Of a stretch of 64,000 nucleotides of DNA, positions 1 through 64,000 are shown in pieces. The DNA is from Escherichia coli (GTDB lineage: Bacteria; Pseudomonadota; Gammaproteobacteria; Enterobacterales; Enterobacteriaceae): NCBI RefSeq assembly GCF_024502345.1, contig NZ_JALDNN010000001.1. One strand, 5' to 3'. Each line of letters starts with the position of its first letter. Positions within the stretch are counted from its first letter, which is position 1. Below the pieces are notes generated by a model, which saw only the letters and a list, made by a program, of their open reading frames with translations, was not told the DNA's origin and ran no database searches. The position numbers were made by a program, and so were the translations under genes.

Positions 1-12
1 AGTAAGCAATTT

Positions 13-642
13 ATGGCTATTATGCCAGAACTATTAACAGATGCCGTCTGGCGTGCCGTGCTCAATGTATATGATGCCGATGCAGCACGATGGTTCTGGC
101 GTAAGCAACCACCAGAAAATCGGTTGTATCGCTTAAAGGCTATGGCATTAATACCACAAACGGATGCGCTGTTGGCGGATATTCGACAAACTCCAGAGGT
201 ACTGAATATCTCGTCTGAGAGTGATCCGAATGAAGAGGAGTTTCTCCATTTCTTAATTAATGGGGGCGATATCACTGTAATACATGCACTGGTTGAAAAA
301 GGAATAGTTAACTGGCAGCACCTTATGAACATTGAGGGGTTTGATAAGGACCCCCTAATTTGGGCTATTTCAAAGCTGGGAGAAACTGACAATGACCGGG
401 AGGTTTTGGCATTAATTATTCATGATATTAATGCGCAAAACGCACTGCCGGAGGATCGCATTGCCAAATATTTAACGCGGACGGGATCAATGGGCGATAT
501 TTTTTTAAAAGCGGGCTTACATTGTGATAAGTTATATTCGGCAATTGAGTCCGACAAAAAGCGAAATAATGGTATGTATAGTCAAAACGCCAGGGAAGAA
601 GTGGATCGCGTATGTACTCCGGTGATGCTGCCAACTTACTGA
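13..642 (+). CDS. Uncharacterized protein, C-terminal part; the frame is open to the window edge so the 5' end may lie upstream. Its last 7 codons and stop are supplied by the IS1 terminus (native end would be ...RVCTPAK). Paralogous to the C-terminal half of the 1452..2862 gene.
   Basis: ORF track; by-eye alignment MPELLTDAVWRAVLNVYDADAARWFWRKQPP vs MPELLSEEAYANVIDAYDSATLKAFWQIQLP, and NWQHL...SAIE vs DWQRL...SAIE; frame reconstruction across the IS1 junction. Confidence 0.5.
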   Translation: MAIMPELLTDAVWRAVLNVYDADAARWFWRKQPPENRLYRLKAMALIPQTDALLADIRQTPEVLNISSESDPNEEEFLHFLINGGDITVIHALVEKGIVNWQHLMNIEGFDKDPLIWAISKLGETDNDREVLALIIHDINAQNALPEDRIAKYLTRTGSMGDIFLKAGLHCDKLYSAIESDKKRNNGMYSQNAREEVDRVCTPVMLPTY

Positions 643-675
643 TTTAGTGTATGATGGTGTTTTTGAGGTGCTCCA

Positions 676-951
676 GTGGCTTCTGTTTCTATCAGCTGTC
701 CCTCCTGTTCAGCTACTGACGGGGTGGTGCGTAACGGCAAAAGCACCGCCGGACATCAGCGCTATCTCTGCTCTCACTGCCGTAAAACATGGCAACTGCA
801 GTTCACTTACACCGCTTCTCAACCCGGTACGCACCAGAAAATCATTGATATGGCCATGAATGGCGTTGGATGCCGGGCAACCGCCCGCATTATGGGCGTT
901 GGCCTCAACACGATTTTCCGCCATTTAAAAAACTCAGGCCGCAGTCGGTAA
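676..951 (+). CDS. insA: IS1 InsA (transposition repressor)
   Basis: 91-aa [46 protein letters not shown] matches recalled InsA. Confidence 0.9.
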
Positions 952-1373
952 CCTCGCGCATACAGCCGGGCAGTGACGTCATCGTCTGCGCGGAAATGGA
1001 CGAACAGTGGGGATACGTCGGGGCTAAATCGCGCCAGCGCTGGCTGTTTTACGCGTATGACAGGCTCCGGAAGACGGTTGTTGCGCACGTATTCGGTGAA
1101 CGCACTATGGCGACGCTGGGGCGTCTTATGAGCCTGCTGTCACCCTTTGACGTGGTGATATGGATGACGGATGGCTGGCCGCTGTATGAATCCCGCCTGA
1201 AGGGAAAGCTGCACGTAATCAGCAAGCGATATACGCAGCGAATTGAGCGGCATAACCTGAATCTGAGGCAGCACCTGGCACGGCTGGGACGGAAGTCGCT
1301 GTCGTTCTCAAAATCGGTGGAGCTGCATGACAAAGTCATCGGGCATTATCTGAACATAAAACACTATCAATAA
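870..1373 (+). CDS. insB: IS1 InsB reading frame (expressed as InsAB' transposase by -1 frameshift)
   Basis: ORF overlapping insA in the -1 frame, ends 15 bp before the IS1 terminus. Confidence 0.85.
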
Positions 1374-1451
1374 GTTGGAGTCATTACCTGTACTCCCGCA
1401 AAATAGGTGCAGTTTGGCGCGGTTAAGGAATAAAAAATAAAGGACTAAGCC

Positions 1452-2862
1452 ATGCGTAACGATGAACTTCTTCACCATTTTACTTTTACATTGCTTATGT
1501 TGGGTGGCTATCTACTGACTCTGTTCATCGTTATCGTCCTTTCCTTTTTTCGCCCACTATGCCGAAAAATGGTCTTCCATGGCATATTGCCACAATTGAT
1601 GATGTCGCTAATGGTGTCGCTCGGTTTATATTATCTGGAACGATACTCTATTGCGGTATGGGCCTTACTGGATTCTGTTTGGATATTATTCCCTTGCCTG
1701 TTATTGATCATAGTGATAAATAAATGGTCAAAACGTTCCCTTGTATGGATGAGTGCTTGTCATATTATGTGCTTGCTGTTGTTACTCTGGCAGGTGCAGC
1801 CCACGTTATTTAAAATCAGCTTTTATCACCAACAATTAAGTCACCTGGCTCAGGCAGAACAGGAAAATTTCCGCACACTGGATGCGATTCACGATACGCA
1901 ACGTCTGGAAGAGATGTTGCTGGTAGCGTTGAAATCCCCGGAAAATAAAACCTCTGAAAATGCCTTTCGCTATCTGTCAGGGCGAATCTCACCATTTGCT
2001 ATACCTTCCATTGGCGATCAAAAGTATTCTACCCGCACTTTTTTTACGATTGCGTTGGAACATTACAACGCCCGCGCCATCCGCGCGTTTAGCCGCTTTC
2101 TGCAAGGAAATTCCTCAAAAGCGCAGGAATATCGCGCGATTGTTCATCAAAACAATCCACTGCAGCAGATGTACCGGGGAATAAGTTTGCCAATTCGTTT
2201 TAGTGAAGAAGAGATCGCCCGCCACATTGTTGCCGCTCGCGAGATAAGCCTCACCTTACTGCCCCTGATGCCAGAATTATTAAGCGAAGAGGCGTATGCA
2301 AATGTCATTGATGCTTATGACAGCGCAACGCTGAAGGCTTTTTGGCAGATCCAGCTGCCCGCCCACGCCGGTTTTACGCCTGGAAGCGATGTCGGTAATT
2401 CCTATGACAGCGGCACTCGTTCAACAGGTGAGGGAGTCACCAAAGCGGCTTGAACTGAAAGATAAAAGTGGCAGGACAGTACTAACTTACATCGTGCGCT
2501 TTGGAAATATTGCCGCAGTACAGGCACTGATTGACGCTAATCTGATCGACTGGCAACGGCTTCGCCAATCGACAGAAAGGTCAACACCATTATTACTGGC
2601 CACCTGGCGACAAAAATACGACGATGATCATGTAATCTTCCCATTGATTTTAAAGGACATTCTGGCAAAAAATACACCACCGTCGGCAGAGGAAATAATG
2701 AACTGCATCAAGGATGGTATGACCGCAGATGATTTTTTATCTGCCGGAATGAGCAACACGCAATTCTGTTCTGCGATTGAACAAAGCCTCCAGGCGAAAA
2801 CGTCAGTATTACCGGCGAATCGATTACGCCATCTGCAATCCTCGCTGTGTGCAAAGCTGTAA
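1452..2862 (+). pseudogene. Uncharacterized polytopic membrane protein gene split by a frameshift near 2360-2375 (ORFs 1452..2453 and 2389..2862); N-terminal hydrophobic domain plus C-terminal soluble domain; paralog of the 13..642 gene
   Basis: Two overlapping ORFs in different frames; homology to the upstream paralog continues across the frame change (FWQIQLPAHAG / VLRLEAMSVIPMTAAL vs FWRKQPPENRLYRLKAMALIPQTDAL). Confidence 0.45.
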
Positions 2863-2977
2863 CCAACCGGGAGTTAAGTCATCCGCTGAAAACATCGCAT
2901 TAACTTTTCGATTTCTCTTTCGTTCCGGCTTATAATCCCCGGCCTTTGATTATTTTTTTATCATTTCTGGAAGCAAA

Positions 2978-5497: not shown

Positions 5498-5545
5498 ATA
5501 GTGTTCCCTTTTTTATTGTTCCGGCTAATTGTTATTTAATTCAGC

Positions 5546-34492: not shown

Positions 34493-35563
34493 ATGAAGCT
34501 GGTTGAACACTACATCATGCGTGGTACGCGCCGTCTGGTGCTGATTATCGTCGGTTTTCTGATCTTTATTTTCGCCAGCTACTCCGCACAGCGTTATCTG
34601 ACCGAAGCGGCAAATGGGACATTAGCTCTTGATGTTGTGCTGGATATCGTTTTCTACAAAGTGCTGATTGCACTGGAGATGTTGTTACCTGTTGGTCTGT
34701 ATGTGTCAGTTGGCGTGACGCTAGGGCAGATGTATACCGACTCGGAAATTACCGCTATCTCTGCGGCGGGGGGCAGTCCGGGACGCTTGTACAAAGCCGT
34801 TCTTTATCTGGCGATACCGCTAAGTATTTTTGTCACCCTTCTGTCGATGTATGGTCGTCCGTGGGCTTATGCGCAGATTTATCAACTGGAGCAGCAGTCG
34901 CAGTCGGAGCTGGATGTTCGCCAGTTGCGGGCAAAGAAATTTAACACTAACGATAACGGACGAATGATCCTTTCGCAGACGGTTGATCAGGATAATAATC
35001 GCCTGACTGACGCGCTGATTTATACTTCTACTGCCAATCGAACCCGCATTTTCCGCGCCCGTTCGGTTGATGTGGTTGACCCATCACCCGAGAAACCGAC
35101 CGTTATGTTGCACAACGGCACTGCCTATCTTCTCGATCATCAGGGGCGTGACGACAATGAACAGATCTACCGTAATCTGCAATTACATCTGAATCCGCTG
35201 GATCAAAGCCCTAACGTCAAACGCAAAGCAAAATCGGTCACGGAGCTGGCACGCTCTGTATTTCCTGCCGATCATGCCGAACTGCAATGGCGGCAAAGCC
35301 GTGGCCTGACAGCATTGTTGATGGCGCTGCTGGCCATTTCATTAAGTCGGGTAAAACCGCGGCAAGGGCGATTTTCAACATTATTGCCACTGACGTTGCT
35401 GTTTATTGCCATTTTTTATGGCGGCGACGTCTGCCGTACGCTGGTGGCTAACGGCGCGATTCCCCTCATTCCTGGTTTGTGGTTAGTACCCGGACTCATG
35501 CTAATGGGCCTGCTGATGCTGGTCGCACGCGACTTCTCTTTGCTGCAGAAATTTTCCCGATGA
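34493..35563 (+). CDS. LptF/LptG-family (YjgP/YjgQ) permease, paralog 1
   Basis: By-eye similarity to LptF (LIALEMLLPVGLYVSVGVTLGQMYTDSEITAISAAG vs recalled LptF [34 protein letters not shown]). Confidence 0.75.
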   Translation: MKLVEHYIMRGTRRLVLIIVGFLIFIFASYSAQRYLTEAANGTLALDVVLDIVFYKVLIALEMLLPVGLYVSVGVTLGQMYTDSEITAISAAGGSPGRLYKAVLYLAIPLSIFVTLLSMYGRPWAYAQIYQLEQQSQSELDVRQLRAKKFNTNDNGRMILSQTVDQDNNRLTDALIYTSTANRTRIFRARSVDVVDPSPEKPTVMLHNGTAYLLDHQGRDDNEQIYRNLQLHLNPLDQSPNVKRKAKSVTELARSVFPADHAELQWRQSRGLTALLMALLAISLSRVKPRQGRFSTLLPLTLLFIAIFYGGDVCRTLVANGAIPLIPGLWLVPGLMLMGLLMLVARDFSLLQKFSR

Positions 35564-36639
35564 ATGTTTTCAGTCGCTATTTAATCCGTCATCTCTTTCT
35601 CGGTTTTGCCGCCGCCGCAGGGCTATTGCTGCCGCTTTTTACCACCTTCAACCTGATTAACGAACTGGATGATGTCAGCCCGGGCGGTTATCGCTGGACT
35701 CAGGCGGTGCTGGTGGTGCTAATGACCTTACCGCGCACACTGGTCGAACTTTCGCCGTTTATCGCCTTATTGGGAGGGATTGTTGGCCTGGGGCAGTTAT
35801 CGAAAAACAGTGAGCTTACCGCCATTCGCAGCACGGGGTTTTCTATCTTCCGTATTGCACTGGTGGCGCTGGTTGCCGGGATATTGTGGACTGTTTCGTT
35901 AGGCGCGATAGATGAGTGGGTGGCGTCGCCATTGCAGCAACAGGCGCTGCAAATCAAATCGACCGCCACCGCGTTGGGGGAGGACGATGACATTACCGGC
36001 AATATGCTGTGGGCCAGGCGTGGTAATGAATTTGTGACGGTGAAATCGCTGAACGAGCAGGGCCAGCCGGTGGGCGTGGAGATATTTCATTATCGCGACG
36101 ATCTCTCGCTTGAATCCTACATTTATGCACGCAGTGCCACCATTGAAGACGACAAAACGTGGATCCTGCATGGTGTGAATCATAAAAAATGGCTGAATGG
36201 CAAAGAAACGCTGGAAACATTAGATAATCTTGCCTGGCAATCGGCCTTCACCAGTATGGATCTTGAAGAGTTATCAATGCCGGGCAATACTTTTTCTGTC
36301 CGTCAGCTTAATCATTACATCCATTATTTGCAGGAAACCGGGCAACCCAGCAGCGAATACCGCCTTGCACTGTGGGAAAAACTGGGGCAACCCATCCTGA
36401 CCCTGGCGATGATTTTGCTGGCTGTGCCGTTTACCTTTAGCGCCCCGCGCTCGCCAGGGATGGGTAGCCGTCTCGCTGTAGGCGTCATCGTTGGCTTACT
36501 CACCTGGATCAGCTATCAAATCATGGTCAATCTGGGATTGCTATTTGCGTTAAGCGCACCTGTTACCGCGCTCGGTTTACCGATAGCGTTTGTGCTGGTG
36601 GCGTTGAGCCTGGTGTATTGGTATGACAGACAATATTAA
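35560..36639 (+). CDS. LptF/LptG-family permease, paralog 2 (ATGA overlap with paralog 1)
   Basis: Start MNVFSRYLIRHLFLGF; family motif LSKNSELTAIRSTGFS; membrane topology. Confidence 0.75.
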   Translation: MNVFSRYLIRHLFLGFAAAAGLLLPLFTTFNLINELDDVSPGGYRWTQAVLVVLMTLPRTLVELSPFIALLGGIVGLGQLSKNSELTAIRSTGFSIFRIALVALVAGILWTVSLGAIDEWVASPLQQQALQIKSTATALGEDDDITGNMLWARRGNEFVTVKSLNEQGQPVGVEIFHYRDDLSLESYIYARSATIEDDKTWILHGVNHKKWLNGKETLETLDNLAWQSAFTSMDLEELSMPGNTFSVRQLNHYIHYLQETGQPSSEYRLALWEKLGQPILTLAMILLAVPFTFSAPRSPGMGSRLAVGVIVGLLTWISYQIMVNLGLLFALSAPVTALGLPIAFVLVALSLVYWYDRQY

Positions 36640-36640
36640 A

Positions 36641-36667
36641 CCCGCCGTGGCGCAACACCACGGCGGG
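36641..36667. terminator. Bidirectional hairpin (CCCGCCGTGG-CGCAACA-CCACGGCGGG) between the convergent permease and SPT operons
   Basis: 10-bp perfect stem read directly. Confidence 0.5.
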
Positions 36668-36673
36668 CTCACA

Positions 36674-37846
36674 TTACTGCTTCAGAGTAGCAAATGCCTG
36701 AATGATGGCATCGATTTGCTCACGACTATGGGCAGCGTTTACGCTACAGCGCAGTAGCGTGATGCCTGCAGGCGCGGCAGGTGGCAGGATAAGATTCACA
36801 TAAACGCCCAGCGAAATAAGCTCGCGCCAGATGCGTAAACCGTCCTCTTTCGAACCGATTATTACCGGTACTACCGGACTAATATGTGAACTTAACTCAT
36901 AACCCAGTTTTTGCAGACCGTCATACAGATGGTTGGCGTTATCCATCAGCTTTTGCCGCAGCTCTGGTTGTGTGGCAATAGTTCTTAACGACGAGCGCAC
37001 GGTCGCAATGCAGGACGGAGAAGGAGAGGCGGTAAAAATATACGGGCGGCTGCCGTAGCGCAGCACTTCCATCGCTTCCGAACCGACAGCAAAACCGCCA
37101 ATCGAGGCCAGACTTTTACTGAAGGTGCCAACGATAATATCCACATCATCTTCAACGCCTACAGCTTCAGCCAGTCCGCGCCCCGTTGCGCCTAACACGC
37201 CAAACGAATGCGCTTCATCGACAATCAAATAACCACCGAGACGACGTTTGATATCAACAATTTCCGCCAGCGGCGCAACGTCACCGAGCATGCTGTAGAT
37301 GCCCTCAACGATGATAATCGCCTCTTTCGCCCGTTCACCGAGGCGAACCATGCGCCGTTCCAGATCTTTAGCATCGTTATGGCGGAAACGAATAATTTCC
37401 GCGCCACCGAGAGAACAGGCGTCATAAATACTGGCGTGGCTGTCGGCATCCAGTAACACCACGGCGTTATGGTCGGCAAGTGCGCTGATGACGCCTAAAT
37501 TAGCGGTATAACCGGTTGAAAAAACGATAGCGGTAGGGCGATTGAAAAACTCGGCAATCTCTTTCTCTAACGCCAGGTGCGGCGCATAACTGCCGTTTGC
37601 CATACGAGAACCGGTGGTGCCGGTGCCTTGGGCCGCTAACGCTGCCTGACCTTCGCTGATGGCATCATGATTAAAGGTTAAACCGAGATAATTATTGGTC
37701 CCGGCCAGAATCACTTTTTTATTGCCGATCCGGCCTTCGGTGGCGGAATACACTTCATCAATACAGGTGCCAAACGGTGTTAACCCGTTGTCACTAAATT
37801 GCAGTCGCTCGCCAGCAAGGCGCGCATATTTATCGTATAGCCCCAT
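36674..37846 (-). CDS. Alpha-oxoamine synthase of the serine palmitoyltransferase type (PLP-dependent)
   Basis: 390-aa ORF with PLP-lysine motif GTFSKS and adjacent dedicated ACP gene; family assignment from recalled motifs. Confidence 0.8.
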   Translation of the reverse strand: MGLYDKYARLAGERLQFSDNGLTPFGTCIDEVYSATEGRIGNKKVILAGTNNYLGLTFNHDAISEGQAALAAQGTGTTGSRMANGSYAPHLALEKEIAEFFNRPTAIVFSTGYTANLGVISALADHNAVVLLDADSHASIYDACSLGGAEIIRFRHNDAKDLERRMVRLGERAKEAIIIVEGIYSMLGDVAPLAEIVDIKRRLGGYLIVDEAHSFGVLGATGRGLAEAVGVEDDVDIIVGTFSKSLASIGGFAVGSEAMEVLRYGSRPYIFTASPSPSCIATVRSSLRTIATQPELRQKLMDNANHLYDGLQKLGYELSSHISPVVPVIIGSKEDGLRIWRELISLGVYVNLILPPAAPAGITLLRCSVNAAHSREQIDAIIQAFATLKQ

Positions 37847-38094
37847 TATTTATTCTCCAGCCATGGAAGTAGAGTTTCCATTAATTGCGCAGGGGTTTTG
37901 ACATCCAGCAGAATATTAATAGGAATGGAAATATCGAATCTGTCTTCCAGCATCATTAAGAGATCCATCACTTTGATCGACTCCAGGCCAAGATCGTTGA
38001 CGAGATCGCTGTCGGGCTTAATTTCCACACCGTTTTCGACCAAATCCTGTAAACAGGAAAGGATGTAATCCATTACTATTTCACGATTTACCAT
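37846..38094 (-). CDS. Acyl carrier protein (pathway-dedicated)
   Basis: 82-aa acidic ORF with phosphopantetheine-site-like DLGLESI; stop overlaps the SPT start. Confidence 0.75.
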   Translation of the reverse strand: MVNREIVMDYILSCLQDLVENGVEIKPDSDLVNDLGLESIKVMDLLMMLEDRFDISIPINILLDVKTPAQLMETLLPWLENK

Positions 38095-38125: not shown

Positions 38126-39042
38126 TCAAAATAGCCCGTTGCGTAATGCGTGTTCCAGGCTAATCCCGGGAAACCAATTAATATCTTCAGAAATACGGTT
38201 ATTACTTGCCGACCAGTCGGCGTGGGTTAATTCACGAATTTTCGAGCGGGTCAGCATAGGTTCTTTACCTGCCAGGCGACTCAACGCGGTACTGATATCC
38301 GCAAGGCAGGTGAGTACCGGCAGAGGAATACCAACCATTCGCACGGAACCGCAACGGACGTTGGCGGCAAGTTGCTGTATGCGTTGCCAGTCATAGCCGC
38401 TAGCGACGCCATCGCATAATTCATAGGTTTGCGTCTGTACAGTTTCGGCGCTTAACCACTGACCCACTGCTTGCGCAAAATCGGTGACGTGCAGGAAAGA
38501 GAGCTGTGTATCTGGTGCACCAAGTCGTGGCAGCAGGCCGCGCAGCATCCAGTCAAACAGCGGTTTTAACTCTTTATCGCCGGGACCATACACGGCTGTC
38601 GGGCGAAAAACGCCCAGCGTAATTTCGTCCGCCATTGCTGCCAGTCGTTGCTCGGCGACGTATTTGGATTTTGCATACCAGGAGAGCTCGGGATGGCGCG
38701 CCGCCAGCGAAGAGATAAACAGAAAACGTTGGCAAAAACCGCTCTCTTTTGCCGCCTTCATCAGGCACAGGCTGCCGTCAACGTTACAGCGGGTGAAAAT
38801 CTCTTCTTTGTGCCCGCGCACTTGCCCGGCGCAATGGACCACCGCGCTGGCTCCGGCAACCAGTTCGCTAAGTGAATGAGTATCTTCCAGCGAACCGCGC
38901 ACCCAGGTGAGATTATCATTGACGTGAGCGCGGGCAAGTACGCGTCAATGCGCGAACGTGAAAGCCGCGGGCGAGCAGGTTATCGATAATATATTTACCG
39001 ATAAACCCGGTAGCGCCCGTCACCGCGACAGTTTGATTCATG
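38126..39042 (-). pseudogene. NAD(P)-dependent epimerase/dehydratase-family reductase, frameshifted near 38919-38944
   Basis: N-terminal Rossmann motif MNQTVAVTGATGFIGKYI in ORF 38916..39251; remainder in ORF 38126..38902 in another frame, which is open upstream across the break. Confidence 0.65.
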
Positions 39043-40759
39043 CCAGGGATTCCTGCACATGAAGGCTTGCAGCATAAGCCTTCTGATAACGTTTTTTCGC
39101 TTCCGCACGGGCAGGCTTGCCGGAGGATGTTCGGGGAATACTGTGGGGCGGCAACAGATCGATAGCCGCTGTTACGCCAAATTCGCTTTGGATCCGTGCT
39201 GCCAGCGCGTGGATAAGCTGCCCGCGACGTTCTTCGTCGCTGATCCGACACTGGATCTGCAAAATGATTTTTTCCTGGGCGGTAACAAAAGCAATCGCAT
39301 CGCCAGAATGAATTTCCGGTTCTTGTTCCGCAATATATTCAATATCCTGCGGCCAGATATTACGGCCACGAATAATAATCAGATCTTTAATACGTCCGGT
39401 GACATACAGATAACCGTCCAGCAGATAACCGAGGTCGCCGGTGTCTAACCAGCCCGTCGCGGCAATCTCGTCTTGCGAAACCTGGTCGCCAAAGTAACCG
39501 CTCATCAGGCTGGGGCCGGAGATGCAAATATGGCCTACCACACGTTCCGCGACCGGCATACCTGCTTCATTGCGGATTTCAATGCCATGTTCCGGCAACG
39601 CTTTGCCGCAGTTGACGAAAGTCGATACGGCGCGTGTCTCTGCACCCGGCGCGACGGCTTTACCCTGATATTCGAGGATGTCGCGATCCACTTCGTTAAC
39701 CACAACCCCGGAGGCTTCATCAGAGAAGCTGACAGCCAGCGCATTTTCTGCCAGTCCGTAGCACGGCATGAACGTTTTATTGTCAAAGTTAACCTGACGG
39801 AAACATTCAGCGAATTGATGGAGTTGTTCTGCGGAGATCGGCTCAGCACCAATACCAGCGACGCGCCAGCAGGAAAGATCCAGTTCAGCGAGATCTTTTT
39901 CATTCACGCGGCGCTGGCACAATTCATAGCCAAACGGCGGCGCAACGGAAACGGTGCCGCGATTTTTACTGATCAATTTAAGCCATTGCAGAGGACGCAT
40001 GGCAAAATCCTGAGTGCGCAAATAATCTACTGAAAGTTGCGTGGCGACGGGGGTCAGGAGAAAGCCGACCAGTCCCATATCATGGTAGAAAGGCAGCCAG
40101 GAGACGCAGCGGTCGCCAGGGCGTAATTTAATGCCATCGTGGCTTATAGCACGTAGATTAGCCATCACTTCGCGATGGGTGATAATGACGCCACGGGGAA
40201 AACGGGTGCTGCCGGAGGTGTACTGGAGGTAGGCAATATCGTTCGGAACTGGACGCTGGAGCGCAACATCGGCTTCCGGTAATGCCTTAAACCAGGCGTG
40301 GCTTAAAACATGTAATTCGGGGTTGTTATGCGTCGCGGCATTGACCAGTGGCAACCACTCATCACCAGTGATAATGGCTGCGGGCTGGCAACTTGCCAGT
40401 AAACCCTGGAGTTTGGCGCTCCAGGAATCCCGCTGACCGACGCCCATTGGAATCGCCAACGGGACGGCGACTAAGCCAGCATACTGACAGGCAAAAAAAG
40501 CCTCTACAAACCCGCTACTCGTTTCGGCAATCAGCGCCACGCGTTCGCCTTTTTTCAGGTTCAGCGATAACAACCGCTTCGCACCAGCTTCGGCACGCGT
40601 TTTTAATGTCTGATATTCCAGTTGATCTTCAAGTTGGCAACGTCTGTCATAAAAATTCATTCCGGCGCTACTCAGAGCGGCGTAGTCCAAAGCATCAACC
40701 AGCGTTGGAAAATCGGCATAGCGCATAGGTAGGGAATGCGTAAAGATTTTATTAGACAT
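39038..40759 (-). CDS. Fatty-acyl-AMP ligase / acyl-ACP synthetase-type adenylating enzyme
   Basis: AMP-binding motifs YTSGSTRFPRGV and GYG-type; stop overlaps the reductase start (ATGA). Confidence 0.8.
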   Translation of the reverse strand: MSNKIFTHSLPMRYADFPTLVDALDYAALSSAGMNFYDRRCQLEDQLEYQTLKTRAEAGAKRLLSLNLKKGERVALIAETSSGFVEAFFACQYAGLVAVPLAIPMGVGQRDSWSAKLQGLLASCQPAAIITGDEWLPLVNAATHNNPELHVLSHAWFKALPEADVALQRPVPNDIAYLQYTSGSTRFPRGVIITHREVMANLRAISHDGIKLRPGDRCVSWLPFYHDMGLVGFLLTPVATQLSVDYLRTQDFAMRPLQWLKLISKNRGTVSVAPPFGYELCQRRVNEKDLAELDLSCWRVAGIGAEPISAEQLHQFAECFRQVNFDNKTFMPCYGLAENALAVSFSDEASGVVVNEVDRDILEYQGKAVAPGAETRAVSTFVNCGKALPEHGIEIRNEAGMPVAERVVGHICISGPSLMSGYFGDQVSQDEIAATGWLDTGDLGYLLDGYLYVTGRIKDLIIIRGRNIWPQDIEYIAEQEPEIHSGDAIAFVTAQEKIILQIQCRISDEERRGQLIHALAARIQSEFGVTAAIDLLPPHSIPRTSSGKPARAEAKKRYQKAYAASLHVQESLA

Positions 40760-41129: not shown

Positions 41130-42203
41130 ATGGAATGCGATCTGCTGATGATTAAAATTGAAAAAGTAATTAATAAAAATGACCTTAAGGCATTTATCGC
41201 TTTTCCGTCATCACTTTATCCCGACGATCCAAACTGGATACCCCCTTTATTCATAGAACGCAACGAGCATTTGTCTGCGAAAAATCCGGGGACGGACCAT
41301 ATCATCTGGCAGGCGTGGGTGGCAAAAAAAGCGGGGCAGATAGTTGGGCGTATTACCGCGCAAATAGATACCTTGCACCGTGAGCGTTACGGTGAAGATA
41401 CCGGTCATTTCGGCATGATTGACGCCATTGATGATCCGCAGGTTTTTGCCGCGTTGTTTGGCGCAGCGGAAGCGTGGTTGAAGTCACAAGGTGCAAGTAA
41501 GATCAGCGGGCCTTTCAGCCTGAATATCAATCAGGAAAGCGGATTACTGATTGAAGGTTTTGACACACCACCCTGTGCGATGATGCCACACGGCAAACCG
41601 TGGTATGCCGCGCATATTGAACAACTGGGTTATCACAAAGGCATTGATTTACTGGCGTGGTGGATGCAGCGAACCGATCTCACTTTCTCTCCGGCGCTAA
41701 AAAAACTGATGGATCAGGTGCGCAAAAAGGTGACCATTCGCTGCATCAATCGTCAGCGGTTTGCCGAAGAGATGCAGATCCTGCGTGAGATTTTCAACTC
41801 TGGCTGGCAGCACAACTGGGGATTTGTGCCGTTTACCGAACATGAATTCGCGACCATGGGCGATCAACTTAAATATCTGGTGCCGGACGATATGATCTAC
41901 ATCGCTGAGATTGATTCTGCACCCTGCGCGTTTATTGTCGGCTTGCCGAACATCAACGAGGCGATTGCCGATCTGAACGGATCGCTCTTTCCCTTCGGCT
42001 GGGCAAAATTGCTGTGGCGTTTGAAAGTCAGCGGTGTGCGAACTGCGCGAGTACCGCTGATGGGCGTGCGCGACGAGTATCAGTTCAGCCGCATCGGCCC
42101 GGTGATTGCGCTGTTATTGATTGAAGCCTTACGCGATCCGTTTGCCCGCCGGAAGATCGAGCGCTGGAGATGTCATGGATCCTCGAAACCAATACAGGCA
42201 TGA
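41130..42203 (+). CDS. yghO: YghO-like protein, putative N-acyltransferase, divergently transcribed from the FAAL-ACP-SPT operon
   Basis: 357-aa ORF; position matches the K-12 yghO remnant next to glcC; acyltransferase assignment is tentative. Confidence 0.5.
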   Translation: MECDLLMIKIEKVINKNDLKAFIAFPSSLYPDDPNWIPPLFIERNEHLSAKNPGTDHIIWQAWVAKKAGQIVGRITAQIDTLHRERYGEDTGHFGMIDAIDDPQVFAALFGAAEAWLKSQGASKISGPFSLNINQESGLLIEGFDTPPCAMMPHGKPWYAAHIEQLGYHKGIDLLAWWMQRTDLTFSPALKKLMDQVRKKVTIRCINRQRFAEEMQILREIFNSGWQHNWGFVPFTEHEFATMGDQLKYLVPDDMIYIAEIDSAPCAFIVGLPNINEAIADLNGSLFPFGWAKLLWRLKVSGVRTARVPLMGVRDEYQFSRIGPVIALLLIEALRDPFARRKIERWRCHGSSKPIQA

Positions 42204-42277
42204 ATAACATGCTGGAACGCATTGGGGCGGAGCCGTACAAGCGTTACCGATTGTATGAAAAGCAGATTTAATACCAG

Positions 42278-51760: not shown

Positions 51761-52202
51761 ACATTATTCTGTCTTATTAATTGAAAATTATTTCTCGCTT
51801 TATTATCCATGCGGCAATAATGTTTTGTGTTCAGATAACCTGATAAATAATTAAGAGCGTGAGAACATCTATTTTTTTTATCACGCAAAACAAGTCTGTA
51901 TTAATTATGTTCGCTTGATGAGCAAACACCGTTCTATCTGTTGCTTTTGCAATCTTAATCGTTAAAACTACCAACGAATTTATATAGTTGCGTTGTGAAA
52001 TGTTGTTAATTTTTTGTTTATTGAAATTTCGTAAAAATAGCCAGCCAGACATCAAATAGGGGTTATTCTTATAAATTTCACCTGTTTTCTATCAATGATG
52101 TCGTTTTCTTAAGAATGGAGGAAATTATTAAAGAAGATAAAGCATAAAACTATTTCTCCCAGTTACGAATTTTTTAACATTGTTTTGTCACTTGCGTTAT
52201 TA

Positions 52203-53300
<1,098 letters not shown>

Positions 53301-53399
53301 TATTACTGTCGCCTGTAAATAACCGGCACAGTGCGAACACCATGCCGGGAGATTATGGCTGACAAAACGGGAACGACAGGATCCCGCTGTTGTCGGGGG

Positions 53400-55082
53400 T
53401 CAGAAGGTTTCCCAGTTCTCGCTGGCGTGTTGTTCCGTTTCACGAACGGACTTTACCGCTTTAACCTTACTCTGCGGGCTGGTGTTGCTGATTGTCGGTA
53501 CTATGGTATTTTTTCGTTCAGCATCGCGTTTTTTATTATCACGGAGACGAAATACGCTCACCTTCTCCTGCAGAATCCGTGACTGATTCTGCAACGAAGC
53601 GGCAGTGGCTGCAGACTGTTCCACCAGAGCTGCATTTTGTTGGGTGGTGCTGTCTATCTGGCCCATGGCGCTGTTAATCTGGGCAATACCATCTCCCTGC
53701 TCACGACTGGCCTTGGCTATTTCGTCAATCAGCCCTTCCATGCTCTGGACGTTACTGATGATATCCTCCATTCCCCTGTCTGCTTTTTCAACCAGGGTAC
53801 GGCCGGATGCAATGCGGGAAACGGAGTCATCAATGAGCTCTTTTATTTCCCGCGCGGCAGAAGCACTGCGCTGAGCCAGATTACGAACCTCTCCGGCCAC
53901 AACCGCAAATCCACGGCCGGACTCGCCGGCGCGTGCGGCTTCCACGGCAGCATTAAGCGCGAGAATGTTGGTCTGGAAGGCAATCCCGTCGATGACCTGG
54001 ATGATGGCTGTCATTTCAGACGAGGTGTCGTAAATCTCCTGCATCCGGGAAGACACCTCACTCATGACCACTCCATTCTGTTTCACAATGGCCGTTGTTT
54101 CTGTCACAAACTGGTAAACCTGTGCTGTATTGCCGGCAGTATTGTTTATGGTGGCCGTCAGTTGTTCCAGAGTGGCCGCCGTCTGTTCCACACCGGCAGC
54201 CTGCTCTTCGGTGCGGGCTGACAGGTCTGTATTACCACTGCTGATTTCTGCTGCAGTCAGCGCAATATTGTCCGCTCCCTGACGTACTTCCCGGACGGTG
54301 TTACTCAGACTCCCGCACATATCACGCAGTGCCTGCATCAGTTGCCCCAGCTGGTCCTGTGAGTCCACTTTAATCTCCACACACAGGTTACCTTCCGCCA
54401 CTTCCCGGGCAATCCGGACGGCTGAAATCAACGGACTGGTAATGCTTCTGGTGATCAGCCATGCCAGCACACCTCCCAGAAGAAGCGCCATACACCCAGT
54501 GATGATCAGTGTCAGTATGGCTGCCGTACCATTATCAGCGATAACTTCACCCGCTTTATCTATGCTTGTTTTTTCGTATTCCACCAGTGCCTGCAGACTG
54601 GCCATGTAGTCATTTATGATCGGTAATTGCTGTGACTCAATGAAGTGGTTCAGGGCTTCACGGTCCCCCTGCTCACTGATCTGAAGAGCTTTTACCAGGG
54701 TATCTGCATACACCTGACGCTTTTCACCAATGGTTTTCAGCAGCTTAATACCCTGCTCTGAAGTAAGCTCCCTGTTAAATTTATCCTGCAGTATATCCAC
54801 GCGAGCACGGGTTTTCTCTATCCGCTGCTGTGCATATGTCCTGATATCCGGGTCCCCCGACGTCAGCAGAACCAGTCCAAGCGCACCGTTTGATTCAATA
54901 CCGGTCTGCCATTCATTCGCCATACGCTCCTGCAGAAGATAATTATTCATCACGCGATCGGTGGAAGTGAGCATAGAGTTCAGGTACCCCACTCCGGTCA
55001 CTGTCATGATCATGATAAGAACCAGAATTAGGCTGAAGCTGCCAGCCAGCCTGATACCCACACTAAAGTCTTTGATTTTCAT
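53400..55082 (-). CDS. Methyl-accepting chemotaxis protein (orphan, island-borne)
   Basis: 560-aa ORF: TM1, periplasmic domain, TM2, HAMP, conserved MCP signalling region ([51 protein letters not shown]). Confidence 0.85.
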   Translation of the reverse strand: [560 protein letters not shown]

Positions 55083-55380
55083 TTTATTACCCGTGAATGA
55101 AGCTGGTTATTTCGGACCCCGGTGTCCCTGACAAATAACTGGTGCCTCCAGACTTATTTATGAGGAATCATATTTTGATTAACGAGATCTGTTATCGGTA
55201 TCAGTGTGCCTGAATGGAGTATGTCAGACACGACCACTTAATACCCCGAAGCGTCCTGCCAAAAAAGACCAGACGGTGAGGGCTGGTCTGAAATCTGACA
55301 ATGTCTATGGGGTCTACCGTTGCGTAGAGGGCTGTCACAACGTTAATAAGATTATCGGCAACAGTCCGGTAAACTTTAAC

Positions 55381-56030
55381 GGCACTGTTGCAAATAGTCG
55401 GTGGTGATAAACTTATCATCCCCTTTTGCTGATGGAGCTGCACATGAACCCATTCAAAGGCCGGCATTTTCAGCGTGACATCATTCTGTGGGCCGTACGC
55501 TGGTACTGCAAATACGGCATCAGTTACCGTGAGCTGCAGGAGATGCTGGCTGAACGCGGAGTGAATGTCGATCACTCCACGATTTACCGCTGGGTTCAGC
55601 GTTATGCGCCTGAAATGGAAAAACGGCTGCGCTGGTACTGGCGTAACCCTTCCGATCTTTGCCCGTGGCACATGGATGAAACCTACGTGAAGGTCAATGG
55701 CCGCTGGGCGTATCTGTACCGGGCCGTCGACAGCCGGGGCCGCACTGTCGATTTTTATCTCTCCTCCCGTCGTAACAGCAAAGCTGCATACCGGTTTCTG
55801 GGTAAAATCCTCAACAACGTGAAGAAGTGGCAGATCCCGCGATTCATCAACACGGATAAAGCGCCCGCCTATGGTCGCGCGCTTGCTCTGCTCAAACGCG
55901 AAGGCCGGTGCCCGTCTGACGTTGAACACCGACAGATTAAGTACCGGAACAACGTGATTGAATGCGATCATGGCAAACTGAAACGGATAATCGGCGCCAC
56001 GCTGGGATTTAAATCCATGAAGACGGCTTA
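55381..56030 (+). mobile_element. IS26: IS26 (IS6 family), 3'-truncated: left inverted repeat GGCACTGTTGCAAA and 196 of 234 transposase codons (tnp 55444..56031)
   Basis: Match to recalled IS26 terminus and transposase MNPFKGRHFQRDIILWAVRWYCKYGISYREL...; identity ends at GACGGCTTA. Confidence 0.88.
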
Positions 56031-56513
56031 ACGGACATAACCTACATCAGGACCCACGAAGGCTGGCTGTATCTTGCCGTGGTGGTTGATCTGTTCTCAC
56101 GCAAAATTATCGGCTGGTCCATGCAATCCCGGATGACAAAGGACATTGTCCTGAACGCACTGCTGATGGCCGTATGGCGGCGTAATCCCCAAAAACAGGT
56201 GCTGGTTCATTCGGATCAGGGCAGTCAGTACACAAGCCATGAGTGGCAGTCGTTCCTGAAATCACACGGCCTGGAGGGCAGCATGAGCCGTCGCGGTAAT
56301 TGCCATGATAATGTGGTTGCAGAAAGCTTTTTCCAGTTGTTGAAACGCGAACGGATAAAGAAAAAGATCTACGGAACGCGGGAAGAAGCCCGCAGCGATA
56401 TTTTTGATTACATCGAAATGTTTTATAACAGTAAGCGTCGGCATGGTTCCAGCGATCAGATGTCACCGACAGAATATGAAAACCAGTATTATCAACGGCT
56501 CGGAAGTGTCTAG
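56031..56513 (+). mobile_element. 3' fragment of an IS3-family orfB (DDE transposase C-terminus), abutting the truncated IS26
   Basis: Frame encodes DITYIRTHEGWLYLAVVVDLFSRKIIGWSMQSRM...HSDQGSQYTS...MSPTEYENQYYQRLGSV. Confidence 0.8.
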
Positions 56514-56546
56514 ATTATCTGTGGCGATTCATATCTTGGAATATAA

Positions 56547-56985
56547 ATGTTAAAAAAATTAATAACTTTTTCTGCCATCCTGTGTACGGGACAAGCATGG
56601 GCTGCATGTGTGGATGGTGCAGCTGGCCCAAACGGCGTAGATAGTGCCACCGAAGGTAGTACCTGCGATAACAGCGGTACGTCATATATAGGGAATAATA
56701 CCGCTTATGCGAGCGGGTCAGGTTCTGTTCTTAATTTCTTACCTGGAACTGTAATCAGTAGTAATGGTGTTGCTGCCGTTTATACGCTTGCCGTGGGAGG
56801 AGTCAATAGTGGCGGTTCGATCCCTGGAGCTGGAGCAACGGTTCATGCAAAAGGAGATTTAACAGTTAATGGGAATGCTCTGGGCAGTACTCGGAGTATT
56901 TTTATCTTTTCTGGTACAGATGCAGGGGGAAAACGTAACTCACTTCAGATAGATGGAAACCTGACTGCAACGAGGACTGGCGGTC
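56547..56985 (+). pseudogene. 5' fragment of a secreted Gly/Ser/Thr-rich protein gene (possible adhesin/autotransporter passenger), 3'-truncated at the junction with the integrase fragment
   Basis: Signal peptide MLKKLITFSAILCTGQAWA then low-complexity passenger-like sequence; the ORF's last codons are antisense integrase sequence. Confidence 0.4.
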
Positions 56986-57548
56986 TTTATGGGGCTGTTA
57001 TAGGTGATAATGCCTGACTGGGCAGCATAGCGCATGATTGCAGTGATACGCTGCTGAAGGCGCGCTGCAATCTCATAAATCTCTTTGGCTTCGGCTGCCT
57101 TTACTGGAACAAGTAAATCGGGAGTTCTGAGGGTGGTAATGTCACGTGAACCGATAAAGGGAAACACATGAGTTTCTAGGCTTTTCAGTATCTTCTCACT
57201 ATGTGAGGCTGACCATTTTTTGTTGCTCTTATGCCACTGCCTTGCGATGCCTTCAAATGTCTGAGCTGTTTCGGGTACCGACTTTTTGATTCGTTTCTGT
57301 TCGCACGGGTCAGTTCCTTCAGCTATCTGCTTTCTCGCCGCATCGCGTTTTTCCCTTGCTTCTGATAACGAGACTTCAGGATAGACACCCAGGGCGAGCG
57401 TTTTCTCTTTGCCCAGAAACCGGTAGCGGAGTCGCCAGTAGCGCGAGCCGTTAGGGTGAACGAGCAAAAACATGTTGCCGCTGTCGGCAAGTTTATAAGG
57501 TTTTTCATCCGGTTTAGCTGCACGGATTTTAGCGTCAGTGAGCGCCAT
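56980..57548 (-). pseudogene. P4-type phage/island integrase, N-terminal ~190 codons only
   Basis: MALTDAKIRAAKPDEKPYKLADSGNMFLLVHPNGSRYWRLRYRFLGKEKTLALGVYPEVSL matches recalled CP4-like integrase arm-binding domain; catalytic domain absent; sits 195 bp downstream of the tRNA-Phe fragment. Confidence 0.75.
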
Positions 57549-57743
57549 TGGCGGTATCTCCTGATAGTAAAAGGGGCATAAATTTTATCGAATCAGACTA
57601 TACCCTCAGTTGTACCCTCGCAAGGGGCTTGATGCGGGTAGAAGTTGATTGAGCTGGGTGGAGTTAATGGATTGAAGAGGTGTTGATTTCTGCGGGATTA
57701 GAATGCAAAAACGGACCTCCGTGGAGGTCCGTTGATATGAATT

Positions 57744-58629: not shown

Positions 58630-61600
58630 CTAGAGGTGTCCTCCAACCCCTTTAAATTTTTCGATAAATGCCCCAATTTTCTGGAATACAGTCTGCTTTT
58701 TCGTTTTGTACTGAGGATTCAGCGGACTGAGCTTTGGTAGCGTCTCATTTAGCTCCGTCCCATTTTCGGTGGCATACTCCCGTTTTAGTGATGTGCGGAT
58801 ATAGCGCCTTGCAGCCTCTTCATTGAGGTTTTCTTCCTTAATCAACGCCTCTGCTTCCCGTTGCTGTTCACGCTGAGCATAGGTAAAGAATGCATCAATG
58901 ATACTGGCCTTGTCCGGCATGTCATCAAGGTTAGTTTGCTGAATAAAGTCAACAATCAGACCTTCTTTGGCACGGTTGCCCAGACTTGAGCGGATTAAGC
59001 GTCTGACCTCTTCAGTCAGGGCTTCTTTACCTTTTTTCTGACGATTGTGGTCGAAAATCAGACCAAGGATGTAATCCAGGTTAATTTCCTGCGACTTCAG
59101 CAGGTCAATTTCAAACACCACGTCATCCCAGTCTGTGGTTGATTTATCCCTGTCGTTTGATGCTTTTTCGCGTCGCTGCCAGTCCCGGATATCATTGTAT
59201 GCTGAGCGATAGTCCTGAACTTTACGTTCTGCCGGGAGACGAATGGTTTGTAATTCAGCAAATTTTTCATCATCCACATAGTGCTCTGCTTTAAAGGTTT
59301 CTACCGCTTCCGGGTCACTAATATCAACCTTCTGCAGGGCTTTCAGCGTGGCAAATTCATCATAGTTTTGCAGGATGTTTTCTGCCCGCAGATATTCACC
59401 AAACAGTTTGACGAAGGCTTTTTTCTCTTTTTCACTGTCGATACTGGCAGGGTCAGGGAAGCGCTGCTCCAGCTCAGAGACAACAGCCATAAAACCTCGT
59501 TTAGCCTCACCGGTTGCCGCATCGGTAAAGCCCTGCATGTACTCTTCGTAGCTTTTTTCCAGCACCACATTCTTGGTGTTTTTGTCGCCGAAAAGTGTGA
59601 TGGCATCAATGGTCGGACGCTCCAGGTCCCTGAAAGTCACGATATTGCCGAAGGTTTTGGTTGCATCATAGATACGGTTGGTGCGTGAGAATGCCTGCAT
59701 CAGACCGTGATAACGCAGGTTTTTGTCAACGAACAGAGTATTGAGCGTCGGAGCATCAAAGCCAGTCAAGAACATTCCCACCACGATGAGAAGGTCAATA
59801 TCCTGATTTTTCACTCGTTGAGCTAAATCGCGGTAGTAGTTCTGGAAACCGTTACTGTCGGTGCTGAAATTGGTTTTAAAGTGGTTGTTATAGTCATCAA
59901 TGGCTGAATCCAGGAATTCCTTTGCGCTGCTGTTCATTGCACTGGTATCAAAACTTTCGTCGGTAATATCACCAATAGCGCTTTGCTCTTCATTAGCAGC
60001 AAAAGAGAAGATGGTTGCCACACGAAGACGTTTATAGCTGCCAGATTTCTTCTCAGCTTCTTCCTGTAGCATTTTAAATGTCGTGTAATAAGCTTTTGCC
60101 GCGTCCACGCTGCTCACTGCTAACATGGCATTGAAGCCTTTTGCTCCCGGGAAGGTACGATGCGTTTTCTGGCGGAAGTTATTGAGAATGTATTGCGTTA
60201 TTTCCTGGATACGCAGTGGGTGCAGAAAGGCCTGGTGGTTTTCAGCCGCGCTGAGTTTTTTCTCATCAGTTTCCGTTTCAAGAGACTTAAACTGTGGGCG
60301 GACATCGTTATAGTCCACCTTAAACTTCAGCACTTTTTCATCACGAATCGCATCAGTAATGACGTAAGAATGTAATTCACGCCCGAAGACGCTGGCGGTG
60401 GTTTCTGCCCCCAGTGCGTTTTCCGGGAAAATAGGTGTACCGGTAAAACCAAACTGATAAAAGCTTCTGAATTTCTTTTTGAGGTTTTTCTGGGCCTCAC
60501 CAAACTGGCTGCGGTGACACTCATCAAAGATAAACACAACCTGCTGCTGATAGACGGGCAGGTCAGCTTCGGCTTTCATCAGGTTATTGAGTTTCTGAAT
60601 GGTTGTGACGATAATTTTGTTATCGTCCTTATCCAGGTTTCTTCTGAGGCCAGCTGTATTATCCGAACCATTCACACTGTCCGGAGAGAAGCGCTGATAC
60701 TCCTTCATGGTCTGGTAATCGAGGTCTTTCCTGTCGACCACGAAGAAGACTTTATCAATAAAGTCCAGCTCGGTTGCCAGACGTGCGGCCTTAAAACTGG
60801 TCAACGTTTTACCGCTACCTGTGGTATGCCAGATAAACCCGCCGCTTTCGGGTTTTGACCAGTTCTTCGCTTTAAATGAGCTGTTAATTTTCCAGAGGAT
60901 TCGCTCAGTGGCAGCAATCTGATAGGGGCGCATGACGAGCAGCGTCTGGCTGCTGTCAAACACGCTGTAATTAAACAGAACATTCAGCAGAGTATGCTTC
61001 TGGAAGAAAGTGGCGGTAAAGTCCTTCAGGTCCTTAATCAGAGTGTTATCCGACTTTGCCCAGTTCATGGTGAAATCAAAGCTATTTTTATCCCGTTTAG
61101 TGGTACTGGCAAAGTACCGGGTATCAGTCCCGTTGGAAATCACGAAGAGTTGCAGGTATTTAAACAGGGAGTTATCGCTGTTAAAGCTTTCCTTGCTGTA
61201 ACGGTGTATCTGGTTAAAGGCTTCACGAATCGCCACACCGCGTTTTTTGAGTTCGATTTGCACCAGTGGAAGGCCGTTGACCAGAATGGTGACGTCATAA
61301 CGGTTAGCGTGTGAGCCAGTCTGCTCAAACTGCTGAATGACCTGCACCTTATTGCGCAGCAGGTTCTTTTTATCTATCAGATAGATGTTTTCCAGACGAC
61401 CATCATCAAACGTAAAATCACAGATATAGTCGATATGGATTTTACGGGTTTTGTCCAGGCTGCTGTCACTGGGACTGTCCAGATACTGCTCTGCGAAGCG
61501 CCGCCATTCACTTTCGTTAAACACCACACCATTAAGACGCTGAAGCTGGTCTCGCACATTCGCCAGCATCGCAGCCGGTGACTTAACGGAGATAAACTCA

Positions 61601-61746
61601 TACCCCTGATTAAGAAGGTCTTGAATCAGCTCCCGCTCAAGGTCCGATTCGCTCTGGTAACTCTCACCAGTTTCCTGAGCTTTAGAGTACTTATCAAGGA
61701 CGATAAAGTTATTGGATTCAGCAATAGTATGTGTCTGTTGTGTCAT
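58630..61746 (-). CDS. hsdR: Type I restriction enzyme R subunit (HsdR)
   Basis: 1038-aa ORF with helicase-type motifs (TGSGKT, DECHRSQ) and type I R subunit architecture. Confidence 0.9.
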
Positions 61747-61861
61747 GGTGCATCCTGTGCGTCATCTGGCAAAGTCCGGAAGGGTATCAGAAACATCATC
61801 CGGCACTCGTAAAGCCTGATACCGGTAGGTGAAAGCAGACACTGCCGGTATCAGTGGCCTG

Positions 61862-63087
<1,226 letters not shown>

Positions 63088-63091
<4 letters not shown>

Positions 63092-64000
63092 TTCTGCACC
63101 TCGCAGCCTTCAATTTCAGCCACAATCGCATCAATATCTTTGCGCAACTGGTCGATTTTGCTGACCGTGGTTTTCAGCTCTGCATTCAACTCAGCGATAT
63201 CGATAATTTCGCGAGTATCTTTCGCTTCCACATAGCTGCTCACCGACAGGTTATAGTCATTCGCGACAACAGTCTCAAACGCAACAGATTTCGCCAGATG
63301 AGCAACATCTTCCTTGCTGGCAAATACCTGCATAATTTGTTCGATATGGGCATCGGTCAGGATATTGTTGTTGGTCTCTTTTTTGAATAGTTCACTGGCG
63401 TCAATAAACTGAACTTTGGTATCGGTTTTATGTTTAGACAACACCAGAATATTGACGGCAATAGTGGTGCCAAAGAACAGGTTCGGTGCCAGTGAAATCA
63501 CGGTTTCGACATAGTTATTGTCAACCAGGTACTGTCGGATTTTCTGCTCTGCACCGCCACGGTAAAAAATACCGGGGAAGCAAACTATTGCTGCACGCCC
63601 TTTAGCAGACAGGTAGTTCAGCGCATGTAGGACAAATGCAAAGTCCGCTTTTGATTTCGGGGCCAGTACACCAGCTGGAGCAAAGCGCTCATCGTTAATC
63701 AGGGTCGGGTCGTCACTGCCAATCCACTTAACCGAGTACGGCGGGTTAGAGACAATCGCATCGAACGGTTTTTCATCGCCAAAGTGAGGCTCAGTCAGGG
63801 TATTCCCCAGTCTGATATCAAATTTGTCGTAGTTGATGTTGTGCAGGAACATGTTCATACGCGCCAGGTTAAAGGTTGTATGATTTATCTCCTGACCATA
63901 AAAACCTTCTTCAATGATATGGTTATCAAAGTGCTTCTTCGCCTGAAGCAGCAGTGAACCAGAGCCAGCGGCAGGGTCATAGATTTTGTTGACGTGAGTC
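63088..64000 (-). CDS. hsdM: Type I restriction-modification methyltransferase subunit (HsdM), C-terminal part; 5' end lies beyond the window
   Basis: ORF with N6-adenine methyltransferase motif IV (NPPY); frame open to the window edge; stop overlaps the hsdS start. Confidence 0.85.

Follow-up and report, generated by a model that had tools for sequence, protein, structure and literature searches.

A one-base insertion splits the cerR/epi reductase gene of the sphingolipid cluster in an Escherichia coli lineage whose yghO is also frameshifted

In the window, the 64,000-nt stretch of Escherichia coli DNA analysed here, the reductase gene of a bacterial ceramide cluster (cerR/epi) is interrupted by one inserted base and reads as two ORFs. 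We put the probability at roughly 0.9 that this is a genuine and recent loss-of-function allele of cerR/epi, acquired in a lineage in which yghO was already frameshifted, and that it represents ordinary gene decay.

The reductase gene lies on the minus strand and starts at an ATG (39041) that overlaps the stop codon of the upstream aasR as ATGA. Its translation reads MNQTVAVTGATGFIGKYIIDNLLARGFHVRALTRTCPRSRQ and ends after 41 codons at a TGA (38918–38916), which is followed by a TAA. The +1 frame is closed by a TGA at 38947–38945, is open from 38944, where it reads RVLARAHVNDNLTWVRGSLED... (also written RVLARAHVNDNLTWVRGSLEDTHSL...), and continues to a stop at 38126; the first start codon in this frame is GTG 38902 (258 aa). 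Pairwise and five-way alignments locate the lesion, a single inserted base, at 38936–38937 (minus strand). On the coding strand ACT-GCC has become ACT-TGCC, that is T to TT (A to AA on the plus strand), immediately after codon 35 (ACT, Thr35), and the reading frame downstream is shifted by +1. The closest match to the 1,001-nt reductase region (99.8%, megablast) is E. coli USMARC-49610, and the alignment with its intact gene contains a single gap, ACTTGCC in the window against ACTGCC in the relative, whose 304-residue product reads ...ALTRT-ARAHVNDNLTWVRGSLED.... The extra base is absent from all five of the diverse references aligned (USMARC-49610, FDAARGOS_943, MFDS1016424, O104:H4 and JJ1886). 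A preliminary description of this DNA had an N-terminal Rossmann segment running into a stop at 38916–38918, the rest of the protein in a different frame that is open upstream of its GTG, and a one-base indel somewhere within 38919–38944; the stop proves accurate to the base, the second frame is indeed open from 38944, and the alignments narrow the indel to the two positions given above.

The N-terminal stub ORF (41 codons plus TGA, 38916–39041, minus strand) comprises reductase residues 1–35, which in the secondary structure of the AlphaFold model are strand 1, the Gly-rich loop TGATGFIG, helix A and strand 2, followed by six out-of-frame residues, CPRSRQ. The remainder of the protein, residues 36–304, is encoded in the +1 frame (38126–38944, minus strand), as seen in the translation, in the alignment columns and in the 238-aa product of the gene callers, and it contains the invariant Ser110/111, Tyr122 and Lys126. 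GTG 38902 (258 aa) is without a Shine-Dalgarno motif. The start used by the gene callers, GTG 38842 (238 aa), has a GGAG (38854–38851) 8 nt upstream. Joined, the two ORFs give a 304-aa protein, and orthologues of about this length (300–308 aa) are conserved across Enterobacterales. Because the two ORFs would together rebuild a 304-aa protein with 97% identity to its counterpart in BL21(DE3), their arrangement is, judged from the reading frames, not a chance pattern.

The frame-restored allele, as found on a contig (L011) one SNP from the window, is 97% identical over 304 aa to the reductase of BL21(DE3), the gene lying second after yghO in the BL21 locus. It matches the Pfam Epimerase family (PF01370, E = 1.4e-21), and T8-G9-x-x-G12-F13-I14-G15 and Y122-x-x-x-K126 are invariant in 16 Enterobacterales sequences. 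The AlphaFold model of the frame-restored protein (pLDDT 81) has an extended-SDR Rossmann fold with strand 1 at residues 4–7, helix A at 13–24, strand 2 at 28–33 and a loop at 34–43; the insertion falls at codon 36, within this loop, which is variable among orthologues. By sequence, the gene is identified as the E. coli orthologue of BL21 ECD_02852 (cerR/epi) and of Caulobacter CC_1164; the latter two proteins share 34% identity (E = 7e-38, 94% coverage; PMC9386255 Table S2). In Caulobacter, dihydroceramide synthesis depends on CC_1164, and oxidised ceramide builds up when the gene is deleted; 3-oxo reduction by CerR has been shown genetically for Caulobacter only (PMC11087976). The name "pathway reductase" given to the gene in the preliminary description can accordingly be made specific, as the keto-reductase of the bacterial ceramide pathway (PMC9386255, PMC11087976).

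The best structural neighbours of the model are NDUFA9 chains (TM 0.72–0.82), with sequence matches at E of about 1e-10, in agreement with the reported relationship of CerR to NDUFA9 (PMC11087976). NDUFA9, the 39-kDa subunit of mitochondrial complex I, resembles the reductase in fold and gives a significant sequence match, but it is a structural, NADPH-holding subunit of complex I and not a lipid reductase, and the likeness is one of fold only. Eukaryotic KDSR is a classical SDR. For KDSR/Tsc10 and Bacteroides BT_0972 the same chemical step as for CerR is proposed, in which the long-chain base has its 3-keto group reduced, but KDSR, unlike CerR, is an intrinsic membrane protein (PMC11087976), and CerR is without a eukaryotic orthologue (PMC11324152). 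The Caulobacter model further differs from KDSR/Tsc10 and BT_0972 in that CerR acts on an N-acylated intermediate.

Caulobacter crescentus CerR/Epi (CC_1164 = CCNA_01222) occupies the same slot in aasR-cerR-acpR-spt, the ceramide-synthase gene forming a unit of its own nearby, and has the same extended-SDR, NDUFA9-like fold and conserved NAD-binding motif; the window copy differs in being frameshifted after codon 35, with no full-length protein possible. The likeness to E. coli BL21(DE3) is closer still, with identical neighbours and gene order in addition to the protein identity found once the extra base is removed, but in BL21 the reductase (304 codons) and yghO (380 codons) are both intact, whereas both are broken in the window. 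With these differences, BL21 is ruled out as the strain of the window. An uninterrupted frame of about 304 codons for the CerR/Epi domain was not found in the window copy, which stops after 41 codons and has the cofactor loop and the catalytic residues in different frames. On its reading frames we class it as a pseudogene of the CerR/Epi family, not as a functional member.

The cluster sits between yghO and yghR, with yghO divergent from aasR-cerR-acpR-spt. The first gene of the operon, aasR (39038–40726, minus strand), is an intact, full-length open frame for a fatty acyl-AMP ligase or specialised acyl-ACP synthetase (NCBIfam NF006624, 868 bits against a cutoff of 600; role from PMC9386255). 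Downstream of the reductase gene, acpR (37846–38094, minus strand) for a specialised acyl carrier protein is intact and 100% identical to the relative, and the last gene, spt (36674–37846, minus strand), for serine palmitoyltransferase, is intact as well (NCBIfam NF047599, 599 bits against a cutoff of 500). A GC-rich terminator-like hairpin (36637–36671, minus strand) marks the end of the operon between spt and an lptG paralogue. The accessory genes of the island (31717–36639, plus strand) encode a MOP-type flippase (yghQ-like), a 274-aa protein, a YtfJ-family protein and a second LptF and LptG; all five are intact in the window. They are presumed to serve sphingolipid export, by analogy with LptF2/LptG2/flippase of Caulobacter (PMC11324152).

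The order aasR-cerR-acpR-spt with a nearby, separate cerS homologue is the same in the window, BL21, Citrobacter and Erwinia. In BL21(DE3) the genes are named aca (yghO, ECD_02850), aasR (ECD_02851), epi (ECD_02852), acpR (ECD_02853) and spt (ECD_02854), and a cluster of all five dihydroceramide genes is reported to occur in Caulobacter and E. coli BL21 only (Padilla-Gomez et al. 2022, PMC9386255). In the literature consulted, BL21 AasR, AcpR and Spt, in vitro or overexpressed, are the only proteins of the E. coli cluster with a reported activity, and native ceramide production is not reported (PMC9386255); we infer part of the ceramide "pathway" in E. coli. The order of reduction and N-acylation in bacteria is debated (PMC9386255, PMC11324152). 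A megablast search of the 1,001-nt reductase region against 5,426 complete E. coli genomes finds the locus in 4,124 (about 76%), the island being unmatched in about 24%; with a 12.5-kb query over the island, none of the complete E. coli genomes is closer than about 99.1% to the window. K-12 is presumably among the genomes without the sphingolipid island.

The inserted base recurs in other sequenced material. Exact-product look-ups return the 41-aa stub on 21 metagenome or read-archive contigs from many projects, the 238-aa fragment on 8 contigs and the 357-aa frameshifted YghO (see below) in 80 blocks of a large assembly collection, all three listed from NCBI, ENA and Logan sources; the 258-aa ORF from GTG 38902 had no exact match in this collection. 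The samples with the insertion are ERZ10621112, ERZ10621109, ERZ27268317, ERZ27268145, ERR14375843, SRR21938383, SRR32878073, ERR2855845, ERR2855815, ERZ19693311, ERZ19692932, ERZ28660770, ERZ773152 and ERZ915402, and the stub-bearing sources include human gut metagenome (ERZ915402; ERR589820, PRJEB6997). String and BLAST checks confirm the base in eight fetched loci (L008, L010, L012 and L016–L020). Eleven insertion-bearing contigs, compared with the window over 11–21 kb, are 99.7–100% identical to it: L018 (SRR21938383) is 100% identical over 15.6 kb and L019 (SRR32878073) over 12.6 kb, and 2 SNPs in 20.7 kb separate L016 from the window. As the same base recurs in independently sequenced, near-identical contigs, we are confident that the frameshift is a real, heritable pseudogene allele and not a sequencing error. 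The carrier contigs may share descent from one widespread clone; they prove the sequence right, not multiple origins.

A second lesion lies 3 kb away in yghO (41130–42271, plus strand), the homologue of Caulobacter ceramide synthase (aca/bCerS, CC_1154). A 1-nt deletion after 42160 gives a product of 357 aa instead of 380, which ends at 42203 with a foreign tail. The truncated YghO keeps 343 of its 380 native residues and loses the conserved C-terminal 37 (DALEMSWILE[ST]NTGM...YRLYEK). Since this block hardly varies among seven genera whose overall identity is about 80%, the truncated YghO is probably dead too. YghO has no Pfam or NCBIfam match; its link to ceramide synthase comes from PMC9386255 (44% identity to CC_1154, E = 1e-107, Table S2) and from source names such as 'GNAT family N-acetyltransferase'.

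The two lesions appear to have arisen in sequence. All seven insertion-bearing contigs that reach yghO carry the yghO deletion, whereas three contigs with the deletion (L009, L011 and L013) have an intact 304-aa reductase; L008, L010 and L012 have the reductase as 41-aa and 238-aa ORFs. Over 13 kb, L011 differs from the window by one SNP (36728) and the insertion, with the yghO deletion already present, and the remainder of the window reductase shows no further differences from the L011 allele. Because of this nesting, yghO probably broke first, and the reductase frameshift probably arose very recently within the yghO-frameshift lineage. The yghO lesion is also the more widespread of the two in the contigs. 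L010, L012 and L017 are mosaic; their SNPs fall in clusters, as is typical of metagenome contigs with strain mixing or recombination, and recombination could blur an order that rests on nestedness. A separate observation concerns the metagenome contig L015 (ERZ27239021:k119_5305), in which an IS1 end (1–117, identical to window 1272–1388) abuts the start of aasR at window 40744; an IS1 may have inserted upstream of the operon in a sister strain, or the junction may be an artefact of the contig end.

The preliminary description had the putative lipid pathway blocked at keto-reduction. The reductase step is indeed broken, but given the frameshift in yghO there is a second block, which probably came earlier. 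That the reductase frameshift itself blocks an otherwise working pathway would need either an active truncated YghO or a reductase that acts before acylation. The 343 native residues left in YghO and the debate over the order of the two steps (PMC9386255, PMC11324152) speak for such a block, whereas the near-invariance of the lost C-terminus in seven genera argues that it is needed, and the yghO lesion, being more widespread, is apparently the older; we regard a block of this kind as unlikely. In the favoured reading, the reductase would have been hit in a lineage with yghO already frameshifted, as a second and probably neutral hit in an interrupted pathway, and the strain could make 3-oxo-sphinganine at most.

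The predicted consequence for the protein is loss of function. Duplication of the T after codon 35 shifts the frame so that translation ends after 41 codons, and the stub contains only the first beta-alpha-beta unit, from strand 1 and the GxxGxxG cofactor loop through helix A to strand 2. The catalytic residues (Ser, Tyr122 and Lys126) lie on the remainder, which would be untranslated or at best separately and weakly translated. With the cofactor loop and the catalytic residues split between two frames, the fold leads us to expect no active NAD(P)-dependent reductase. A 238-aa fragment from GTG 38842 might be made; in the model it starts at strand 4 and is without the cofactor-binding unit. 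The premature stop and the long untranslated stretch may also lower expression of acpR and spt through polarity.

An active reductase could still arise if a programmed +1 frameshift recoded the message, or if two separately translated pieces reassembled. In favour of this, a +1 shift is what would be needed, TGA TAA closes the zero frame soon after the site, and GTG 38842, with its SD-like GGAG at the right spacing, is the start from which gene callers predict the 238-aa product. On inspection, however, 38944–38916 (ACG CGT ACT TGC CCG CGC TCA CGT CAA TGA) contains no slippery, shift-prone or CUU-UGA-like motif, every orthologue examined is one ORF, so that the arrangement is not conserved, and the intact sister allele differs by the inserted base alone, which means that nothing has co-evolved with the insertion. 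A split enzyme would require strands 1–2 and the cofactor loop in trans, as the 258-aa piece begins within strand 3 and the 238-aa piece only at strand 4, and this supply would have to come from a 41-aa peptide with a foreign tail. We consider either route to an active enzyme very improbable. Programmed frameshifting, transcriptional slippage (the run is only TT) and phase variation were rejected as candidates, with neither motif nor conservation to support them.

Least credible is an error of sequencing or assembly hiding an intact 304-codon reductase, which the preliminary description had offered as an alternative. The complete genomes taken alone favour it: none of the 4,118 complete E. coli genomes carrying the site has the allele (exact match of an 81-mer centred on the insertion in 0 of 4,118), each of the 4,106 full-length matches is 1,000 nt long where the query has 1,001, and the yghO deletion is found in 0 of the 4,544 complete genomes carrying that site. 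This second private single-base indel, so close to the first, initially hinted at low-quality sequence. The error reading drawn from the complete genomes, with neither indel among the 5,426, was dropped after the metagenome and read-archive assemblies, where the identical insertion occurs in at least 14 independently sequenced samples, from different read sets and several assemblers, while near-identical sister contigs carry the wild-type base. Independent sequencing thus repeats the two-ORF state, where the preliminary description had allowed that resequencing might reveal a continuous ORF of about 305 codons; nor is the two-ORF arrangement a feature of orthologues, which are single 304-codon ORFs in E. 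coli, Citrobacter and Erwinia. The site, T to TT, has no homopolymer run.

The quality of the surrounding sequence also speaks against error. Gene-by-gene comparison with the relative covers 46 collinear genes (44.7 kb coding), of which 44 are full length without an internal stop; the two disrupted genes are the reductase (cerR) and yghO. Six intergenic indels relative to the nearest relative were examined. At 36653, 40891, 51872 and 52138 the window state is common to at least one other E. coli, and the sites at 5511 and 13384 fall outside the coverage of the other references; the indel at 33425 is a frameshift in USMARC-49610, not in the window. In about 50 kb including intergenic sequence, where references cover (which excludes 5511 and 13384), there is no other private indel. 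The chance that two random coding indels in 46 genes would both hit the five ceramide genes is about 0.013, and decay of a single dispensable pathway accounts for the pair better than random error does.

Damage to this gene or to its cluster is also seen in other E. coli strains. The reductase of MFDS1016424 is annotated with an 'internal stop' (L005 17128–18042), USMARC-49610 has a frameshift in the gene for the 274-aa protein (L001 14211–15034), and two further assemblies (L023 and L024) have split reductases of 141 + 169 aa and 120 + 169 aa. These lesions differ from that of the window and lie at different positions, and so represent independent events; decay of the reductase gene or its cluster is for this reason recurrent in E. 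coli. Such recurrence suggests weak or conditional selection on the pathway in this species. In L022 (GCA_900449925.1) each of five genes (aasR, reductase, spt, lptG paralogue and ytfJ-like) is broken up into several ORFs, which looks like an indel-rich assembly rather than biology and contrasts with the clean window.

Both ends of the window depart from the relative. In window 52185–57550 the gene for the sslE/acfD lipoprotein is truncated at about 52510 and is followed by an IS26-like transposase (55426–56031), an IS3-family ORF (56079–56513) and an integrase fragment (56940–57548); a methyl-accepting chemotaxis protein gene (53400–55082) lies downstream of the truncated sslE/acfD, and the T2SS-beta gsp cluster, which comes after sslE in relatives, is missing from the window. 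A type I restriction-modification system (58630–63858, minus strand; hsdR of 1,038 aa, hsdS of 409 aa and an hsdM fragment) has its best matches in complete E. coli genomes at about 90–96%, located elsewhere in those genomes. No complete E. coli genome matches the IS and restriction-modification region, the right-hand 12 kb of the window, as a block. To the left of ygiQ, at the place expected for ftsP and plsC, window 1–2900 has no match to the relative; it contains an IS1 InsB ORF (870–1373) and three further ORFs (13–642, 1452–2453 and 2389–2862).

A lineage with intact aasR, acpR, spt and flippase/LptF2/LptG2 but dead YghO and CerR admits two further thoughts, doubtful as they are. It might be a naturally occurring E. 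coli of the human gut whose product, perhaps also exported, is free 3-oxo-sphinganine in place of ceramide. Alternatively, loss of the acyltransferase before the reductase might hint that the Enterobacterales reductase, as proposed for Caulobacter, works only on an N-acylated intermediate and is dispensable once acylation is lost.

The finding is a modest one, a new and well explained allele of one more decaying accessory gene. In the annotation of this strain, cerR and yghO should be marked as pseudogenes and not 'corrected' as errors. About 76% of complete E. coli genomes nevertheless have the island, and its cluster has been little studied; the natural single (yghO) and double (yghO and cerR) mutants, a few SNPs apart, provide near-isogenic material for work on the product of the cluster and its relevance in the gut.
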